Below are positions 15,934-42,218 of a DNA stretch of 64,000 nucleotides, one piece after another. Position numbers and translations under genes: made by a program. The notes beneath the pieces were generated by a model. It was not told the origin of the DNA, did no database searches, and saw only the letters and a program-made list of their open reading frames with translations. The DNA comes from a virus: positions 1-64,000 of the IMG/VR virus record IMGVR_UViG_3300045391_000045. The stretch is one strand, 5' to 3'. Position 1 is the first letter of the stretch, and each line of letters opens with the position of its first letter.

Positions 15934-17550
15934 ATGTCTAATGCACTTGGTAAGTTTGCTGCTTCTCAGAAGCAGGAGCGCGTTGCTACGCCTCAGACAA
16001 AGCGTACCCCTGGTCGTACGGATGAGGTCAAGAACAACGCGGGCGGGTTTGTGTTCAAGGTAGACGACAAGTCTCGTCTTGAGCGCTTCCTGGTGTTGGG
16101 TACTGACAAGGGTACCTATTACGTTGGTGAGCAGAAGTTGACGGCTCAGAACATTTCCTTCCTGAAGGAGATGGTCCGTAAGGATGAGCGTCTGGTCGTG
16201 GACACTGCTGTTGACGTCTCTGTAAACGCTCGTGCGCTTAAGAATTCTCCTGCGCTGTTCGCTATGGCTCTGGTCATGACGGAGGGCAAGGACAAGGCTT
16301 ACGCTCGTGAGGCCGTACAGAAGGTTGCTCGTACGTCTACCCACCTTTTCGAGTACGCACAGTACATCGATGACCTGGGTGGTTGGGGTCGAGCAAAGCG
16401 TCGTTCTGTCGCTGAGTGGTACGAGAACAAGTCTATCGATGCGCTTGCGTATCAGGCTGTGAAGTACCGTCAGAGGAACGGTTGGACGCACCGTGACCTT
16501 TTCCGTCTTGCTCACCCTCAGGGTGTAGACCAGGGTGTTGGTAACTTCATCCTTGGCAAGGACGTTGAGGCTGAGGTGGAAATTCTTAAGGGCTTCGCTG
16601 CAATGCAGTCTGCGACTTCGGTCAAGGATGTTATTCGCACGCTGGAGACTTTCAAGAACCTTCCTTGGGAGACCATCCCTACTCAGTTCCTCAAGGATGT
16701 GAAGGTCTGGAAGACTCTGTTCTACAACGGTCAGCTTCGTGGCCAGGCTCTCATTCGCAACATTACTCGACTCGCTCGAATTGGTGCGTTTGATGACATG
16801 GTTTTCGCAACTGACTACGCGAACGCAATTGCTAACCAGGAAATGATTCAGAAGACTCGTCTTCACCCAATCAACTTCCTGAATGCGGTTGTTGTTCACG
16901 AGAGTGGACAGATTGACCGTAACGGTTACAGCATGTGGAGTGCCGGACGTAAGAAGGATTGGAAGTCTAACGGAAAGATTGTGGATGCTCTCAATGAGGG
17001 ATTCCACATGGCATTCAAGACTGTCGAGCCTTCTGGCAAGAGGACTCTGGTTGCGACTGACGTGTCTGGCTCAATGAGTCAGGCTGCCATCGGACTTGAC
17101 CTCTCTTGTGCTCAGGTTTCTGCGGCTGTTGCTATGACGGTTGCGCGTTCCGAGCCTTACAGTGACATTGTTGGCTTCTCTAGCAGCATTGTTGACTTGG
17201 GCATTACCGCTAAGAGTTCTTTTGCCGACGCAATGCGTAAGGTGAGTAACAGGAACTTTGGTGGTACGGATGCGGCTGCTGCAATTAAGTACGCTAACCA
17301 GAAGGGAATTCAGGTTGACACCTTCGTAGTTATCACTGATAACGAGACGTGGGGCGGAAGCCAGAAGCCTTTCCAGGCACTTAAGCAGTACCGTCAGAAG
17401 ACCGGAATTGATGCGCGTCTTGCGGTTCTCGGTGTGGCGTCTACGGACTTCACCATCGCTGACCCTACGGACCGTGGAATGATGGACTTCGTTGGTTTCG
17501 ATGCAAATGCGCCTAAGGCCCTCGCGGACTTCAGCGCTGGTCGTATCTGA
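15934..17550 (+). CDS. rsr: Ro60-like ribonucleoprotein (TROVE domain + C-terminal vWA/MIDAS)
   Basis: 538 aa; TROVE-like N-terminal region; MIDAS motif VATDVSGSM...TD; RBS AAAGGATTAGAAAAATG. Confidence 0.8.
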   Translation: MSNALGKFAASQKQERVATPQTKRTPGRTDEVKNNAGGFVFKVDDKSRLERFLVLGTDKGTYYVGEQKLTAQNISFLKEMVRKDERLVVDTAVDVSVNARALKNSPALFAMALVMTEGKDKAYAREAVQKVARTSTHLFEYAQYIDDLGGWGRAKRRSVAEWYENKSIDALAYQAVKYRQRNGWTHRDLFRLAHPQGVDQGVGNFILGKDVEAEVEILKGFAAMQSATSVKDVIRTLETFKNLPWETIPTQFLKDVKVWKTLFYNGQLRGQALIRNITRLARIGAFDDMVFATDYANAIANQEMIQKTRLHPINFLNAVVVHESGQIDRNGYSMWSAGRKKDWKSNGKIVDALNEGFHMAFKTVEPSGKRTLVATDVSGSMSQAAIGLDLSCAQVSAAVAMTVARSEPYSDIVGFSSSIVDLGITAKSSFADAMRKVSNRNFGGTDAAAAIKYANQKGIQVDTFVVITDNETWGGSQKPFQALKQYRQKTGIDARLAVLGVASTDFTIADPTDRGMMDFVGFDANAPKALADFSAGRI

Positions 17551-18550: not shown

Positions 18551-18743
18551 TGAGAAGGCAAAGGAACTTCAGGACACCATCAACGAGATTGGCATGAGCG
18601 TGCTTACGGGTTACACTCTTGCTGATGCAATTCGTGAGGGTTCCATGGTATCAAAGCAGGAGTATGGTTGGGGCGATGGGGCTACTGCATGTGCTCTTAC
18701 TGCTGCTGTGATTGGTGCCAAGTCTCGTGGCTACGTCGATTGA
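18537..18743 (+). CDS. hypothetical protein
   Basis: 68 aa. Confidence 0.4.
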   Translation: MNKIDEKAKELQDTINEIGMSVLTGYTLADAIREGSMVSKQEYGWGDGATACALTAAVIGAKSRGYVD

Positions 18744-18767
18744 CATTGCCCGAACTAAGTGTTAAGA
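18739..18767 (+). promoter_or_regulatory. promoter TTGACA-N17-TAAGAT
   Basis: exact -35 and 17-nt spacer ahead of tRNA pair. Confidence 0.5.
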
Positions 18768-18835
18768 TGTAATAAGTCAGGTAGCAGTGGTTACTGCTCA
18801 TAAGGAAGCGACGGTTGCTCGCCCGCCTGATTTAT

Positions 18836-18908
18836 GGTCCCGTAGCTCAGTGGATAGAGCAACGGCTTGCGGAGCCGTGTGTCGGAGGTTCGAATCCTCT
18901 CGGGACTA
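18836..18908 (+). tRNA. tRNA-Arg (anticodon read as GCG; unusual)
   Basis: acceptor GGTCCCG/CGGGACT, D-stem GCTC/GAGC, anticodon arm ACGGC-TTGCGGA-GCCGT, T-arm GGAGG-TTCGAAT-CCTCT. Confidence 0.5.
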
Positions 18909-18912
18909 CTTT

Positions 18913-18990
18913 GCCCCAGTATCGCCACTGGCTTCTAACCAGTCGTTAACAGCGTAATGGAGTATGCAGGTTCGAATCCTGTCTGGGGTA
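18913..18990 (+). tRNA. atypical tRNA-like gene (anticodon TCT, Arg) with 5-nt D region and 22-nt variable arm
   Basis: acceptor GCCCCAG/CTGGGGT, anticodon arm ACTGG-CTTCTAA-CCAGT, T-arm GCAGG-TTCGAAT-CCTGT; no D-arm can be folded. Confidence 0.4.
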
Positions 18991-19162
18991 CGTGAGTCGT
19001 AGAGAACTAATTGTGATGTATGATGGTCTGAGCAATGAGGAAGAAGATGCTCTATTTGAAGCCATCGAAAACGTAATTTGTCCCGACATTGAGGAGGAAG
19101 ACCATTCCGAATCGTGTCGGCTTTTCTGTATGTCAATCAAAACAGTAGAAGAAAGTAATTAA

Positions 19163-20850: not shown

Positions 20851-21654
20851 ATGTTCGGTCGTCGTAAGGCTGCTTTCGTTCCCGATACCACCAAGCGTGT
20901 TCTTAAGACTGTCAAGGTTGTTAAGCGAGACCCTTCTACGGCTGCTGCGCCTGTTGACCTGATTAAGAAGGTTGGTGTTTCTTTCGAAAAGAAGGTTGAG
21001 TCTGCTGTTAATCTGAACAAGAATGTCAGTGGCCCTTCTCGCGGTGTTGTCTGGAATGTTATCGGTCTGCTTGATGAGTCGTACTCTATGGCTCCGTTCT
21101 TCAGTGATGGCACTGTTCAGGAGATTGTTGACCGTGTGCTTGCTTGGTCTGCCTCGGTTGATGCTGATGGCCTGGTGCCTTTCGGCGGATTTGCTGACAG
21201 CCACGTTTGGCACGGTGACGTTGACCTGACTAACGTTAATAACGTCGTTGCTACAAACGGCTGGTCGCCTTGGGGTGGTACCAACCTTGCTGACTCTCTT
21301 CAGGCTATCCTTGACATGGTTCGGGACATGGGAGATGCTTGGCAGGAGAACCCCATCCTTCTGTTCATTGTGACAGACGGTATGCCGTTCAATCGGGACC
21401 TTGTAAAGCAGCTTATTCAGGAACTTTCTCAGTACCCTGTCTTTATCAAGATTCTGCGGGTTGGCAATGACCCTGGTGCTAAGGCTTTCGTTGAGGACCT
21501 TGACAACATGGTTGGTGGTCGTCTGGTGGATAATGTTGAGGCTCCGGATGATGGTCTCCGTAAGGGAATGTCTGACGACAAGTTCAATGCAGCGATGATT
21601 CACGACATGGACAAGTATGTCAACGATGCAACTGCGGTTGGCCTGCTTAGTTGA
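20851..21654 (+). CDS. vWA (von Willebrand factor A) domain protein
   Basis: MIDAS-like DESYSM, TNLADSL and FIVTDG motifs. Confidence 0.6.
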   Translation: MFGRRKAAFVPDTTKRVLKTVKVVKRDPSTAAAPVDLIKKVGVSFEKKVESAVNLNKNVSGPSRGVVWNVIGLLDESYSMAPFFSDGTVQEIVDRVLAWSASVDADGLVPFGGFADSHVWHGDVDLTNVNNVVATNGWSPWGGTNLADSLQAILDMVRDMGDAWQENPILLFIVTDGMPFNRDLVKQLIQELSQYPVFIKILRVGNDPGAKAFVEDLDNMVGGRLVDNVEAPDDGLRKGMSDDKFNAAMIHDMDKYVNDATAVGLLS

Positions 21655-21679
21655 CAAGCCCTTGCTAGTCATGTAAGAT
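21651..21679 (+). promoter_or_regulatory. promoter TTGACA-N17-TAAGAT
   Basis: precedes three-tRNA cluster. Confidence 0.5.
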
Positions 21680-21707: not shown

Positions 21708-21781
21708 GGCGGTATAGCTCAGTTGGTTAGAGCGTTCCCCTCATAAGGGAAAGGCCACTGGTTCGAGTCCAGTTGCCGCTA
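21708..21781 (+). tRNA. tRNA-Met (anticodon CAT), elongator-like
   Basis: acceptor GGCGGTA/TGCCGCT, anticodon arm TTCCC-CTCATAA-GGGAA, T-arm ACTGG-TTCGAGT-CCAGT. Confidence 0.6.
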
Positions 21782-21782
21782 C

Positions 21783-21855
21783 TGCGCGGTAGTGAAGGTA
21801 GGTATCACGCGGGGCTCATAATCCCGAATCAGGAGTTCAAATCTCCTCTGCGCCA
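21783..21855 (+). tRNA. tRNA with CAT anticodon and unpaired 1-72 (initiator-like or Ile2)
   Basis: acceptor TGCGCGG/CTGCGCC with 1-72 mismatch, anticodon stem CGGGG/TCCCG (three G-C pairs), loop CTCATAA, T-arm AGGAG-TTCAAAT-CTCCT. Confidence 0.5.
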
Positions 21856-21856
21856 C

Positions 21857-21932
21857 GGTCCTTTAGCTGAGATGGATTAGCGCGTGTCTGAAGAACACGA
21901 GAGGTATTAGGGTTCGATTCCCACAGGGACCA
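21857..21932 (+). tRNA. tRNA-Phe (anticodon GAA)
   Basis: acceptor GGTCCTT/AGGGACC, anticodon arm CGTGT-CTGAAGA-ACACG, weak 3-bp T-stem. Confidence 0.5.
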
Positions 21933-21933
21933 C

Positions 21934-22083
21934 ATGGTTAATATCAAGAAGAAGCCATTGTATAAGGCTCAGTCCAAGATGGAAGCTGATTCTTGGATTG
22001 ACAGCACCGGCAAGCGTATGTATCCTGGTCAAAAGCTAATCGTTCACCGGCAGGGTGACGAGTGGCACGTCTATAAGGGGTAA
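21934..22083 (+). CDS. small KOW/SH3-like protein starting 2 nt after tRNA-Phe 3' end
   Basis: 49 aa ...GKRMYPGQKLIVHRQGDEWHVYKG; junction ACCACATGG. Confidence 0.4.
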   Translation: MVNIKKKPLYKAQSKMEADSWIDSTGKRMYPGQKLIVHRQGDEWHVYKG

Positions 22084-23557: not shown

Positions 23558-23630
23558 GCCTCCGTAGTGAAATGGACAATCACGCTAGTCTTCGGAACTA
23601 GAATTACGGGTTCGAATCCTGTCGGGGGTA
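23558..23630 (+). tRNA. tRNA-Arg (anticodon TCG)
   Basis: acceptor GCCTCCG/CGGGGGT, D GTGA/TCAC, anticodon arm CTAGT-CTTCGGA-ACTAG, T-arm ACGGG-TTCGAAT-CCTGT. Confidence 0.6.
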
Positions 23631-23807
23631 CATGGCAAAGGAAGCAAAGGTAGGCTCCATCGTTTTGATTCTTACAGGAGAGGGCGAAGGAGATACTGCA
23701 ACCGTAGATAGAGTTGACAGAAGTGGCAATATTCGGGCCAAGATGAATAGAGGTCCGAAGTCTGGCCAGTCTGTCTTGTCTCGAAAGGGAAATTACAGGG
23801 TGATTTC

Positions 23808-23981
23808 ATGATTAAGAAGAATGATAAGGTACGCATCTTATACGGAAACCGGGCGGGTGTAATGGCCAAGGTGCTCCGTGTGTATGACACCAATAACATC
23901 AAGGCTAGGGTAATTACTGACGGACCCTTCAAGGGCGAAATCCTTGAGGTAGTCAGAGAAGGTCACTACGCCAAGGCTTGA
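23808..23981 (+). CDS. small KOW/SH3-like protein (paralog family)
   Basis: 57 aa MIKKNDKVRILYGNRAGVMAKVLRV. Confidence 0.45.
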   Translation: MIKKNDKVRILYGNRAGVMAKVLRVYDTNNIKARVITDGPFKGEILEVVREGHYAKA

Positions 23982-27695: not shown

Positions 27696-27778
27696 GCACA
27701 TATGGCGGAATGGCAGACGCGCTAGCTTGAGGTGCTAGTCTCAGAAATGGGGTGGGAGTTCGACTCTCCCTATGTGCA
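27696..27778 (+). tRNA. tRNA-Leu (anticodon GAG)
   Basis: acceptor GCACATA/TATGTGC perfect, anticodon arm CTAGC-TTGAGGT-GCTAG, long variable arm, T-arm GGGAG-TTCGACT-CTCCC. Confidence 0.6.
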
Positions 27779-27784
27779 CGTCCT

Positions 27785-27934
27785 TGTAGCTTAAAAGGAA
27801 GAGCGCCGTAAAAACGGAGACGGGTCATAATAGGAAAGGTTGCGGATGCACCGAATGGCTCTAGTAGGGTCTGTAGGGAAGCGCGTTTTCCAAGCCTATT
27901 TACAGTGGTGTGAGTTCGAATCTCACCAGGGACA
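27785..27934 (+). ncRNA. interrupted tRNA-like gene: tRNA 5' half and 3' half separated by ~95-nt insertion
   Basis: 5' GTCCTTG-TA-GCTT-AAAAGGAA-GAGC pairs with 3' ...GTGAG-TTCGAAT-CTCAC-CAGGGAC-A; no anticodon arm can be folded between them. Confidence 0.4.
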
Positions 27935-27935
27935 C

Positions 27936-28109
27936 ATGGCTTATCTAAGAGTAGGTGCACAGGTTACAATTTGTGAGAACTTCAATAAGAAGGGTCGAAA
28001 TTGGAAGAACGTAACTGGCTATATTCTTATGATGACTCGCAAGGAAGTGACAGTGCAAACAGAGTATGGTCAAATTATCGTACCTAGGAAAAAGGTGGTG
28101 GCTAATTGA
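27936..28109 (+). CDS. small KOW/SH3-like protein starting 2 nt after tRNA-like 3' end
   Basis: 57 aa MAYLRVGAQVTICENF...; junction CAGGGACACATGG. Confidence 0.4.
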   Translation: MAYLRVGAQVTICENFNKKGRNWKNVTGYILMMTRKEVTVQTEYGQIIVPRKKVVAN

Positions 28110-28817: not shown

Positions 28818-29885
28818 ATGGTACACGTTTCGAAGATTTTCTCGCTCGATGCGTTGCAGAAGGATATCGATGCGGGATTGGTACGTTCACAGGTAAATGA
28901 GGATGGGACGCTCCGCATTTACAATTACACCGAAGAGGTTCAGTACAAGCGAATGTGGAATGACGTTACGCTGAATTGTCGTGGCCTTATTCTCGACAAT
29001 TACATGCACGTTGTTGCTCGTCCATGGAAGAAGTTCTTCAATTTCGGTGAGCGTCCTCTTCTATTCAGCACTGACACTCCGGTTGAGGTGACTGACAAGA
29101 AGGATGGTTCATTGGGTATTCTTTATCGTCACCCAATGACCGGGGATTACCGAATTGCAACTCGTGGCTCTTTCTTGTCTGACCAGGCTATTCACGCTAC
29201 AAAGGTCTGGGACAACAAGTACAGCCACATCGCACAGCCTTGGGATGGAGTTACATTCCTGTTTGAGATTGTGTACCCTGACAATCGCATTGTGCTGGAT
29301 TACGGTGAGCTTGATGACCTAATCTTGCTGGGTGCCGTTCACAATCAGTATGGATGGTACTACGGTCCGAACGAGGCTGCTGGGATGCTCAACTGGACTG
29401 GTCCTGTCACTGAGGTCTTTGAGTACCGGACCACGAACGACTGCTTCAAGGTGCACCGTTCAAATGCTGAGGGTCTGGTAATTCGGGCCGGTAGCGAGAT
29501 GGTCAAGTTGAAGCAGGAGGACTACGTGGCTTTGCACAAGCTAGTCACAGGTCTGAACGAGCGTGCTGTATGGGAGCGCTTGAAGGCAGGCGAGACACGT
29601 GATAGTATCTGTGCATCGCTTCCCGATGAGTTCCACGGATTTGTTGACAAGGTTGCGGATGAGCTAGAGACAAAGTTCAACGAGATTTACCACAGTTCCC
29701 ACGTGGATTACTGTAAGGTGTTGAACATAATGCCTGGCAAATCAAGCATGAGTAAGGCAGACTGGCGTAAGATGTTCGCATCGCACGCTGTTAAGATGCC
29801 TAACTACGACTTGATTTTCAACTACCTTGACAACCGTCCGGTACAGGAGTCTATTTGGAAAATGATTCGTCCTAAGGGCGAGTAA
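28818..29885 (+). CDS. ATP-dependent RNA ligase, Rnl1-like
   Basis: nucleotidyltransferase motif I VTDKKDGSLG (KxDG), 355 aa. Confidence 0.65.
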   Translation: MVHVSKIFSLDALQKDIDAGLVRSQVNEDGTLRIYNYTEEVQYKRMWNDVTLNCRGLILDNYMHVVARPWKKFFNFGERPLLFSTDTPVEVTDKKDGSLGILYRHPMTGDYRIATRGSFLSDQAIHATKVWDNKYSHIAQPWDGVTFLFEIVYPDNRIVLDYGELDDLILLGAVHNQYGWYYGPNEAAGMLNWTGPVTEVFEYRTTNDCFKVHRSNAEGLVIRAGSEMVKLKQEDYVALHKLVTGLNERAVWERLKAGETRDSICASLPDEFHGFVDKVADELETKFNEIYHSSHVDYCKVLNIMPGKSSMSKADWRKMFASHAVKMPNYDLIFNYLDNRPVQESIWKMIRPKGE

Positions 29886-40373: not shown

Positions 40374-40402
40374 TTGACATTTAAGTATACGGAAGTTATA
40401 CT
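40374..40402 (+). promoter_or_regulatory. promoter TTGACA-N17-TATACT
   Basis: directly after tRNA. Confidence 0.45.
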
Positions 40403-40837
40403 TTGATTATGTCCAGACTAGTGAACCTAGCTAAGGCTGTGTCAGAAAAGCCTACAGAGGCAATCGAGTACATCATTTCGATGGCAGTGTTCTTTGTAGG
40501 AATCTGGTTCCTAAGTCCTTTCTATAAGCCGTCTACGTCAGTTCAGTCACAGATTTGGGAAAGTACCCACATTCCTCAATATACTGGTGCTGTTCAGGCA
40601 TTTCTAGCCGCGCTTCTATTCATTGCACTGGTCAGAAAGAATTGGGTGAGGAGGCAAGCGGTCCGTCGGCAGACAACGTTTGCCATTTTTGTTCTTTACC
40701 TGTTTTATGGATTCTCTTCTACAATCATCCTTGGGATGGGGAGGGTTTCTTGGGTATCCACATTCGCAATTGCGCTAATCTCAGGTGTGGTGAACCTAAG
40801 GTTGAAGTGGGAGGAGGGTAATCATGCCGGAAATTAG
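40403..40837 (+). CDS. membrane protein (4 TM)
   Basis: hydrophobic profile. Confidence 0.5.
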   Translation: MIMSRLVNLAKAVSEKPTEAIEYIISMAVFFVGIWFLSPFYKPSTSVQSQIWESTHIPQYTGAVQAFLAALLFIALVRKNWVRRQAVRRQTTFAIFVLYLFYGFSSTIILGMGRVSWVSTFAIALISGVVNLRLKWEEGNHAGN

Positions 40838-41647: not shown

Positions 41648-41654
41648 CAAGCAT

Positions 41655-41682
41655 TGACAATCTAGTGTACTAGCGCTAGTAT
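41655..41682 (+). promoter_or_regulatory. promoter TTGACA-N16-TAGTAT
   Basis: -35 exact, 16-nt spacer. Confidence 0.35.
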
Positions 41683-41808: not shown

Positions 41809-41883
41809 GCCCCGTTAGTCTAGCGGCCTAGGATTCCGGATTTTCACTCCGCGAGAACATCGGTTCGAATCCGATACGGGGTA
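41809..41883 (+). tRNA. tRNA-Glu (anticodon TTC)
   Basis: acceptor GCCCCGT/ACGGGGT, D region GTCTAGCGGCCTAGGAT, loop TTTTCAC, T-arm ATCGG-TTCGAAT-CCGAT. Confidence 0.55.
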
Positions 41884-41884
41884 C

Positions 41885-42079
41885 ATGGGACAAAAGGGAA
41901 AGACACCAAAGTATCACAGAGGTCAGAGAGTATATTCAAAGACCTGGGGGTGCAATGCTACGGTAGTTGCATCTGATAACACCAGGTCTTTCCAAACTGT
42001 TTTTTACATCATCAGACTTGATGGTGCTAAGCAAGACAGTTACAATATTCCGGAGCACCTACTTGCTCCACCAAGATAA
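41885..42079 (+). CDS. small KOW/SH3-like protein starting 2 nt after tRNA-Glu 3' end
   Basis: junction ACGGGGTACATGG. Confidence 0.45.
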   Translation: MGQKGKTPKYHRGQRVYSKTWGCNATVVASDNTRSFQTVFYIIRLDGAKQDSYNIPEHLLAPPR

Positions 42080-42101
42080 AAACTATGGGCTTCGGCCCTA
42101 T

Positions 42102-42175
42102 TCCGGTGTAGTCCAATGGTAGGACACCACTTTGCCAAAGTGGTAGCGCGAGTTCGATTCTCGTCACCGGGACCA
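42102..42175 (+). tRNA. tRNA-Gly (anticodon GCC), CCA encoded
   Basis: acceptor TCCGGTG/CACCGGG, D GTCC/GGAC, anticodon arm CCACT-TTGCCAA-AGTGG perfect, T-arm GCGAG-TTCGATT-CTCGT, then ACCA. Confidence 0.6.
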
Positions 42176-42179
42176 TGAA

Positions 42180-42218
42180 CAGGCACACCAGGTAATGCTG
42201 CACTGCCTGTCTCTTTTT
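42180..42218 (+). terminator. rho-independent terminator
   Basis: ACAGGCA...TGCCTGT then CTCTTTTT. Confidence 0.6.

Follow-up and report, generated by a model that had tools for sequence, protein, structure and literature searches.

What sets the 5′ end of a messenger RNA, and where do ribosomes begin on it, when the start codon of a small gene directly follows the 3′ end of a tRNA? The question is raised by a 64,000-nucleotide (nt) stretch of viral DNA, positions 1 to 64,000 of IMG/VR record IMGVR_UViG_3300045391_000045 (“the window” below), which belongs to a cluster-BE Streptomyces phage (family Stanwilliamsviridae). Among GenBank records, phage Francob is the closest, with 86.7% identity over 87% of an 8-kb query; there are ~100 related records, all but two of them Streptomyces phages. 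At ~47% G+C, the window holds 31 tRNA genes and one transfer-messenger RNA (tmRNA) gene, all on the + strand (ARAGORN, with which Rfam agrees). An initial annotation, made from the letters alone, had pointed to three small genes beginning just after tRNA or tRNA-like 3′ ends. There are five such junctions, and we consider it fairly probable that the open reading frames (ORFs) beginning at them are tRNA-punctuated leaderless genes, with an mRNA 5′ end made by tRNA 3′ processing.

A scan of every tRNA end, together with the Rfam matches, placed a start codon at the second position past the discriminator base (N73+2), with a single C between, at the following five junctions (aa, amino acids):

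21857 to 21932, + strand: tRNA-Phe(gaa), discriminator A at 21932 and C74 at 21933 (ARAGORN, Rfam)
21934 to 22083, + strand: ORF A, 49 aa, ATG directly after C74 of tRNA-Phe
23558 to 23630, + strand: tRNA-Arg(tcg), discriminator A at 23630 and C74 at 23631 (ARAGORN, Rfam)
23632 to 23811, + strand: ORF B, 59 aa, ATG directly after C74 of tRNA-Arg(tcg)
27780 to 27934, + strand: 155-nt tRNA-like RNA, A 27934 as the discriminator equivalent and C74 at 27935
27936 to 28109, + strand: ORF C, 57 aa, ATG directly after the 155-nt tRNA-like RNA plus C
41809 to 41883, + strand: tRNA-Glu(ttc), discriminator A at 41883 and C74 at 41884 (ARAGORN, Rfam)
41885 to 42079, + strand: ORF D, 64 aa, ATG directly after C74 of tRNA-Glu(ttc)
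18913 to 18990, + strand: an odd tRNA-like RNA, discriminator A at 18990 and C74 at 18991 (Rfam tRNA, 34.2 bits)
18992 to 19162, + strand: ORF E, 56 aa, acidic, GTG directly after C74 of the odd tRNA-like RNA

The three sites noted initially (21932/21934, 27934/27936, and 41883/41885) were correctly placed: Rfam puts discriminators at 21932 and 41883, and the sequence can be read directly as AGGGACC-A-C-ATGGTT (21925-21939), CAGGGAC-A-C-ATGGCT (27927-27941), and ACGGGGT-A-C-ATGGGA (41876-41890). Two had been missed, tRNA-Arg(tcg)/ATG 23632 and the odd tRNA-like RNA/GTG 18992. A start 2 nt past the tRNA end is right as a position, N73+2, but not as a 2-nt leader, there being only one C between. 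ARAGORN tRNA ends are one base longer than those of Rfam because ARAGORN takes the C at position 74 for the first base of CCA. This C stands without a following CA in 29 of the 31 tRNA genes; the full CCA is encoded in the other two. Neighboring tRNAs (Met-Met-Phe, His-Cys, and Leu with the 155-nt tRNA-like RNA) are exactly one C apart, so the start codon at a junction sits where the +1 base of a downstream tRNA would be.

Could five such junctions be coincidence? Repetition had been taken as an argument against it, and the count agrees. An ATG or GTG opening at least 49 codons occurs at 1.07% of + strand positions, from which 0.36 junctions would be expected among 34 tRNA-type ends; five were observed (binomial P = 3e-5). 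In the Francob annotation, the gaps from a tRNA to the next coding sequence are 0, 0, and 0, then 4, 9, and 16-28 or more, so that the zero-gap cases form a discrete class.

The ORFs are conserved, as the initial annotation needed them to be. The tblastn matches number 25 phage records for ORF A, 9 for ORF B, 12 for ORF C, and 17 for ORF D, all of them cluster-BE Streptomyces phages; ORF E has homologs in Francob, Gilson, and Comrade. Nearly all of the alignments for ORFs A-D begin at residue 1, and the ORF E homologs likewise align from residue 1. Pairwise ratios of nonsynonymous to synonymous substitution (dN/dS) for ORFs A-D are 0.1-0.4, with synonymous sites near saturation. The junctions were translated in Francob, Gilson, Comrade, Kenrey, Faust, TunaTartare, Coruscant, and Mandalore: N-terminal residues are conserved, and the in-frame upstream (tRNA) sequence holds stop codons in relatives, in all four families checked (A-D). 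Two other starts were tried and rejected. For ORF A, an internal start at Met16 fails because relatives have Ile there and keep residues 1-15; an 87-aa version of ORF C from 27846, with GGAAAGG upstream (the call of the Joint Genome Institute, JGI), runs through sequence that in relatives shows stops and 1-nt insertions or deletions. GenBank already annotates the junction starts in Francob (gp119, gp129, and gp184) and Gilson (gp110, gp122, gp132, and gp187); the ORF E homolog is gp110 in Gilson (ggggtGC/GTGGAA) and unannotated in Francob (ggggtAC/GTGAGT). The gene calls are thus not new, and it is the mechanism and its generality that appear undescribed.

Across related phages, the offset is held while the rest of the junction sequence drifts. 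The tRNA-Phe/ORF A junction is kept in Francob, Gilson, Kenrey, and Comrade, the last with GTG instead of ATG at the unchanged position, and also in Faust and TunaTartare, where the protein is 50% identical and the acceptor stem is different (GGGAGCC-A-C/ATG). ORF B adjoins tRNA-Arg(tcg) in Francob (gp129), Gilson (gp132), and Kenrey (gp135); Comrade lacks ORF B, and there the next gene after this tRNA has a 19-nt leader. ORF D adjoins tRNA-Glu in Francob (gp184), Gilson (gp187), Comrade (gp180), and Kenrey (gp190). The discriminator varies in the odd tRNA-like RNA of Gilson and the base following ATG varies among relatives, so the ACATGG motif first described for these junctions does not hold up: both the G at +4 and the A at N73 are variable (ATGAAG, ATGAAT, ATGAGT, gtGC/GTG). 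In two families, copies detached from the tRNA have a leader with a Shine-Dalgarno (SD) sequence. Coruscant and Mandalore have no tRNA-Phe, and their ORF A, with the same N-terminus, lies 24 nt past tRNA-Met behind gatGAGGAatc/ATG; in Comrade, ORF E is ~100 nt downstream of the odd tRNA-like RNA with its own leader.

A single KOW-like family, as first proposed for the products of three junctions, is not supported for the encoded proteins. Pfam and PHROGs give no significant family for ORFs A, B, C, or D; ORF B falls below the KOW (PF00467) gathering threshold (16.7 bits vs. 22.3, E = 0.0065), and A, C, and D give no KOW match. Pairwise hhalign comparisons (C/D, C/B, D/B, and A/C) return probabilities of 0.2-0.6%, with no detectable homology between these families, and the acidic ORF E looks, by inspection, unrelated to the others. 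AlphaFold models of ORF C (pLDDT 76) and ORF D (pLDDT 87), which rest on shallow alignments of 5-6 sequences, are small five-stranded barrels. Foldseek matches for these are to a generic SH3-like set (TM ~0.6-0.7, E from 0.01 upward), SPT5 KOW domains and Rpp29 for ORF C and chromo and Tudor domains for ORF D; judging from the models, the two would share only a generic SH3-like barrel fold. Without a shared family, the junctions are not copies of one duplicated tRNA-plus-ORF module, and it becomes more likely that the fixed offset has a functional reason. Protein-seeded IMG/VR searches with ORFs A and D found no relatives, and searches of large protein databases with ORFs B, C, and D found close phage homologs only. 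JGI names a 98%-identical ORF C homolog “RNase P/RNase MRP subunit p29”; this was not confirmed, archaeal Rpp29 (1tsf, 6k0a_E) being among the Foldseek matches of ORF C but no better than KOW or SH3 domains.

If tRNA processing is to make these mRNAs, tRNA and ORF must lie on one transcript. On its + strand the window has 42 perfect promoter-like sites of the form TTGACA-N16-18-TAnnnT (e.g., 20285, 20661, 21651, 23978, 31040, 38898, and 41500); the – strand has none. Many of these sites are 8-30 nt before a tRNA, which suggests many short, strongly promoted tRNA units. Those that bear on the junctions, with the further RNAs of the units, are:

18740 to 18768, + strand: promoter-like TTGACA-N17-TAAGAT, before tRNA-Arg(gcg), the odd tRNA-like RNA, and ORF E
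18836 to 18908, + strand: tRNA-Arg(gcg), first RNA of the ORF E unit (ARAGORN, Rfam)
21651 to 21679, + strand: promoter-like TTGACA-N17-TAAGAT, before tRNA-Met, tRNA-Met, tRNA-Phe, and ORF A
21708 to 21855, + strand: two tRNA-Met genes, head to tail, one C before each next RNA (ARAGORN, Rfam)
27696 to 27778, + strand: tRNA-Leu(gag), one C from the 155-nt tRNA-like RNA (ARAGORN, Rfam)
41654 to 41682, + strand: promoter-like TTGACA-N17-TAGTAT, before tRNA-Glu(ttc) and ORF D

The tRNA and the ORF leave no room between them for a promoter, and the four regions scanned (junctions A-D) show no + strand terminator there. With neither intervening, co-transcription, as proposed in the initial annotation, is the simplest reading; promoter-like sites upstream of the tRNAs add to it for the E, A, and D units, three of the five, and not for B and C.

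Some other genes of this phage are placed for leaderless expression directly from promoters, and leaderless initiation would thus already be part of its gene expression. The comparison case is:

40374 to 40837, + strand: promoter-driven leaderless gene, TTGACA-N17-TATACT, 6 nt, then ATG 40409 (142 aa)

Its Francob homolog, gp179, is annotated with the same start. ATG 43024 (149 aa) likewise lies 6 nt past a perfect –35/–10 pair, and ATG 51787 and ATG 52628 lie 7 nt past the –10 box of such a pair. ATG 26726 is also among the genes starting 5-7 nt past a consensus –10, with a predicted promoter-driven leaderless mRNA.

Where would the tRNA precursor be cut? In Streptomyces coelicolor, CCA is missing from 53 of 65 tRNA genes, and where it is encoded the cut mostly falls “between the Cs” (Romero et al., 2014; PMC4681348). 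CCA-less tRNAs of the same species are also cut after C74, as in GCTc/gc, GAGc/tc, CGAc/tc, and ACAc/ac (Table S4 of PMC4681348), and RNase Z (SCO2547), to which the cut had first been ascribed, and RNase E (SCO2599) are named there as candidate 3′ processing enzymes. In Propionibacterium acnes, too, CCA is cut between the two Cs (Lin et al., 2013; PMC3848588). At the phage junctions the leader would be 1 nt long after a cut following N73 and 0 nt after a cut following C74. With cleavage after C74 as in the host genus, the released phage RNA should begin at AUG with no leader, rather than with the CAUGG first predicted. That leaderless translation is common in actinobacteria is well founded: 264 leaderless mRNAs are known in S. 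coelicolor, in the host genus (PMC4681348), and those of P. acnes use AUG in 68% of cases and GUG in 29% (PMC3848588). For the cut after C74, and for how common leaderless translation is, we rely on these published host data, and we infer by analogy that phage precursors are cut as in the host and the released RNAs translated.

The proposed course of events is then as follows. A strong sigma-70-type promoter would drive a transcript containing at least one tRNA, or a tRNA-like RNA, with no spacer before the small ORF that comes next. The host tRNA 3′-end endonuclease would cut at N73-C74/N75, after which the tRNA would need only C75-A76 to be added; the same cut would leave a downstream RNA beginning with AUG or GUG and carrying a 5′ monophosphate. 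Streptomyces ribosomes would initiate on this leaderless mRNA without an SD sequence, and later genes of each unit would use ordinary SD sites. The next gene after ORF A (ATG 22086) has its own AAGGGG.

Are the junctions peculiar to this phage and its relatives? IMG/VR was scanned, for up to 120 stretches per offset, with a pattern in which a common T-loop (GGTTCGAATCC) is followed after 11 bases by C and, at an offset of 0, +1, or +2 from there, by ATG. When ORFs of 40 aa or more are counted among the matches listed, the ATG starts one at 43 of 81 ARAGORN-confirmed tRNA ends (53%) for offset 0 after C74, at 23 of 101 (23%) for offset +1, and at 13 of 71 (18%) for offset +2 (Fisher P = 3e-5 for 0 vs. 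+1 and 1e-5 for 0 vs. +2). The 353 survey loci hold a further 1,937 tRNAs that lie outside the pattern selection. Within the loci listed, an ATG at N73+2 of these unselected tRNAs starts a frame of 50 codons or more in 16 of 31 cases, compared to 5-24% for N73+3 to +11 and 19-41% for +14 to +25, the normal range for genes led by an SD sequence. C74 is present in 93% of the 1,937, and host CCA-less genes have it too, which tempers any special meaning of C74 in this phage alone. The contigs with listed matches range from 29 to 62% G+C, and some have three or four such junctions. Several of the surveyed ORFs encode enzymes of known type, in which the Pfam match (HAD_SAK_2, Hydrolase_3) sets in no more than 5-16 residues past the ATG and from profile position 1. 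The arrangement is not specific to actinobacterial phages, and the survey suggests that it recurs in unrelated ones. Five unrelated IMG/VR contigs (G+C 29-50%) have three or four genes each that start right after a tRNA C74, with products including a HAD phosphatase and a 2OG-Fe(II) oxygenase.

The initial annotation found no ribosome-binding site at the junctions, and this is mostly borne out. For 110 annotated Francob genes, the best duplex with the anti-SD sequence in the 20 nt upstream has a median of –8.7 kcal/mol, compared to –3.7 at random positions. The junction ORFs in the window give –4.6 to –10.0 kcal/mol because of G-runs in the acceptor 3′ strand, which stop just 3-4 nt short of the start codon and are base-paired as part of the 7-bp acceptor helix. 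The ORFs combine, as actinobacterial leaderless genes do, an ATG or GTG start (four ATG, one GTG) with the lack of a functional SD sequence.

Initiation could conceivably be internal, on an uncut tRNA-mRNA precursor and independent of any SD sequence, with the start codon in the open region 3′ of a compact structure. Cleavage would then be irrelevant, and the zero spacing would reflect genome compaction up to the limit of the tRNA. The genome is indeed tightly packed, relatives have ORFs 3-6 nt past a tRNA with no SD sequence, and the arrangement extends to low-GC phages with hosts that may do without SD sequences. Compaction alone does not, however, explain the peak exactly at N73+2 and the trough from +3 to +11 among the survey tRNAs. 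This phage otherwise uses strong SD sequences, the SD-less genes seen have a –10 box placed for leaderless RNA, and tRNA 3′ maturation must cut here in any case because 29 of the 31 tRNA genes have C74 without CA. We regard internal initiation as unlikely.

An SD sequence might instead be sought inside the tRNA itself: the acceptor 3′ strand (AGGGA, GGGGG, GGGG) would pair with the 16S rRNA tail, and translation would start on the unprocessed precursor, in competition with tRNA folding and processing. A GGG(G/A) run 3-4 nt before the start is found at all five window junctions, compared to 8 of 29 other tRNAs (hypergeometric P ~0.005), and the duplexes are stronger than at random positions. 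The tRNA-Phe of Faust reads GGGAG-ccac-ATG, and the SD-led Coruscant copy is also short-spaced (GAGGA-atc-ATG). On the other side are the 3-4 nt spacing and the pairing of the G-run in the acceptor helix, where typical genes of these phages have AGGAG or GGAG, in the examples seen 6-9 nt upstream. Comrade keeps the ORF A junction despite having lost the G-run (strand ATGGACC). Half of the 16 unselected junction ORFs listed in other phages, which are independent cases, follow a pyrimidine-rich acceptor strand (e.g., tcatcccgaC/ATG, ctatcctcaC/ATG, tcactcgctC/ATG), which excludes an SD sequence there, and a freely spaced SD sequence would not fix the offset at exactly N73+2. The odds of this explanation are, in our view, poor.

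A promoter inside the tRNA, with transcription starting at the A of ATG to give an ordinary 5′-triphosphate leaderless mRNA, is very improbable and was rejected: the phage does make leaderless genes from promoters, but the –12 to –7 hexamers before the four ATGs (CACAGG, TGTCGG, CACCAG, and GATACG) do not fit TAnnnT, unlike those at 40409 and 43024, and there is no –35 at the right distance. That the junction ORFs are unexpressed or non-functional, as chance ORFs or mis-called starts beside tRNAs, might be thought from their short length (49-64 aa) and the lack of a database family and of an SD sequence, but is hardly credible, being already contradicted by the conservation data (the dN/dS values and saturated synonymous sites, the conserved N-termini with stop-ridden upstream extensions, and the homologs in 9-25 GenBank phages, all for A-D), by the confident beta-barrel models of ORFs C and D, and by the binomial P for five junctions.

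Several points weigh against processing of the tRNA as the source of these mRNA 5′ ends. Cleavage after C74 is assumed for these particular phage precursors, and a 5′-monophosphate mRNA may be unstable. The G-run enrichment at the window junctions could hint at an SD-like role, and the duplexes of ORF B (–10 kcal/mol) and ORF D (–7) are comparable in strength to genuine SD sites. For the ORF B and ORF C units, a consensus promoter was looked for in the 130 nt upstream and not found. Some ORFs in relatives begin 3-6 nt past a tRNA end (Kenrey gp138 and gp131, Francob gp125) and so would not be strictly leaderless. Finally, the IMG/VR survey is a sample, not a census, and is biased toward genomes with at least one case.

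Two of the junctions involve RNAs that are not ordinary tRNAs, and tRNA punctuation must accommodate them. The RNA at 27780-27934 had been described as an interrupted tRNA-like gene. It is tRNA-like and conserved, in nine phage or metagenome sequences with forms of 155 and 191 nt, but neither ARAGORN, with or without introns, nor Rfam (tRNA model, 17.2 bits vs. a threshold of 29) accepts it as a tRNA; an intron-bearing tRNA was rejected on the negative ARAGORN -i result. To the acceptor stem, D arm, and T arm of a tRNA its consensus fold adds a 4-bp hairpin with a 10-nt loop and a long inserted arm (80-115 nt). Acceptor stem pairs change from U.G to C-G and from U-A to U.G, a pair in the 4-bp hairpin changes from C-G to A-U, and three pairs covary in the basal helix of the long arm. 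No Rfam family matches it. The YrlA/Y RNA model (RF02553), rejected at the available level of evidence, gives 18-23 bits vs. 69, in an alignment that spans the T arm of tRNA-Leu and the 5′ part of the 27780-27934 RNA. The acceptor stem and T arm are the parts of a tRNA generally described as recognized by end-processing enzymes, and because this RNA retains both it could act as a processing signal.

The odd tRNA-like RNA (18913-18990), which directly follows tRNA-Arg(gcg), is found by Rfam and not by ARAGORN. It has an acceptor stem, a T arm, and the anticodon-like loop CTTCTAA, with the D arm almost gone and 21 nt before the T arm. It is conserved in Francob, Gilson, and Comrade, and the anticodon-stem pairing does not look conserved in the latter two. 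The loop possibly holds a UCU anticodon; no other tRNA-Arg(UCU) was called in the window.

The closest parallel is tRNA punctuation in mitochondria, where tRNAs flank mRNAs in polycistronic transcripts and RNase P together with RNase Z/ELAC2 releases mRNAs with leaders of 0-3 nt. At all five phage junctions a tRNA or tRNA-like RNA abuts the start codon within that range, the predicted mRNA 5′ end would be set by tRNA processing, leaderless and without an SD sequence, and tRNA-like structures can serve in place of tRNAs. Unlike mitochondria, the phage has a bacterial host and many short units with promoters of their own, where mitochondria make genome-length transcripts. The arrangement concerns just 5 of 34 tRNA-type genes, the cut is predicted to follow C74 instead of N73, tRNAs do not delimit most mRNA 3′ ends, and the phage case is known from sequence alone. 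In the open-access literature, tRNA punctuation was found only in papers on organelles, with nothing on tRNA-abutted leaderless genes in phages or bacteria.

In bacteria, tRNAs and a protein gene share a transcript in the Escherichia coli thrU-tyrU-glyT-thrT-tufB operon, as is predicted here, but tufB has a normal leader with an SD sequence, and its start codon, unlike those in the phage, is not abutted by a tRNA. Plant mitochondria have t-elements, non-decoding tRNA-like structures that are recognized by RNase P or RNase Z and set RNA ends. In Haloferax, tRNA-like processing signals have been engineered (PMC4946936). The 155-nt and odd tRNA-like RNAs before ORFs C and E would fit such non-decoding signals; unlike t-elements, they may have another role, for example as partner of a Ro-like protein. 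Promoter-made leaderless mRNAs of actinobacteria (PMC4681348, PMC3848588) resemble the predicted phage mRNAs in their 5′-terminal AUG or GUG, lack of an SD sequence, and use of the same translation machinery; they differ in that their 5′ end comes from initiation (5′ triphosphate), where that of the phage mRNAs would come from cleavage (5′ monophosphate). Leaderless mRNA made by an endonuclease after transcription has a precedent in E. coli MazF (Vesper et al., 2011, as cited in PMC3848588). By that account MazF is a stress toxin leaving a 5′ hydroxyl, unlike the constitutive housekeeping cut of tRNA maturation envisaged here.

A broader proposal can be made only tentatively, and may well be wrong: that phages of many kinds use tRNA 3′ maturation as punctuation for leaderless mRNAs, and that some keep non-decoding tRNA-like RNAs (27780-27934 and perhaps 18913-18990) mainly as processing signals. 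If so, this would be a bacterial and viral counterpart of mitochondrial punctuation, in which the first gene after a tRNA is expressed without a ribosome-binding site and its output is tied to tRNA processing; the host tRNA-maturation machinery, and not promoters or ribosome-binding sites, would set mRNA 5′ ends and starts in phage tRNA arrays. The expression of dozens of small ORFs wedged between phage tRNAs would be explained. Annotators would gain a rule for calling starts beside tRNAs, some of which are now missed (ORF E in Francob) or mis-extended (the 87-aa JGI version of ORF C), and Streptomyces would offer a natural test case for translation of 5′-monophosphate leaderless mRNA. Recurrence in unrelated phages, in the survey, means that the point may be general.

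Some further features of the region concern RNA processing or tight packing. A Ro-like RNA-binding protein and an RNA ligase are encoded among the tRNAs (15934-17550 and 28818-29885), and a polynucleotide kinase is annotated in the same region of relatives (Francob gp104, gp149, and gp152 are cited for the set); together these are an RNA repair or quality-control set. The 27780-27934 RNA is conceivably a Y-RNA-like partner of the Ro-like protein. Between the ORF D stop and tRNA-Gly(gcc) there is a hairpin, GGGCTTCGGCCC (42068-42101; UUCG loop, no T-run), which could be a 3′-end stabilizer or a processing site. tRNA-Gly(gcc) itself encodes the full CCA, and its final A opens ATGAACAGGCACACCAGGTAA, a 6-codon ORF (42172-42196) that is present in Francob and Comrade, missing from Gilson, and probably meaningless. 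Further small ORFs with no SD sequence start 3-6 nt past a tRNA end in Kenrey (locus positions 1733 and 3221) and Francob (21997), as tRNA-His-CCA-gctt/ATG and tRNA-Arg(cct)-AC-gct/ATG. In both phages an ORF between tRNA-His and tRNA-Cys lies within 4-5 nt of the tRNA on either side, and no base separates the tmRNA from the end of the ORF before it (Kenrey gp138, Francob gp132).

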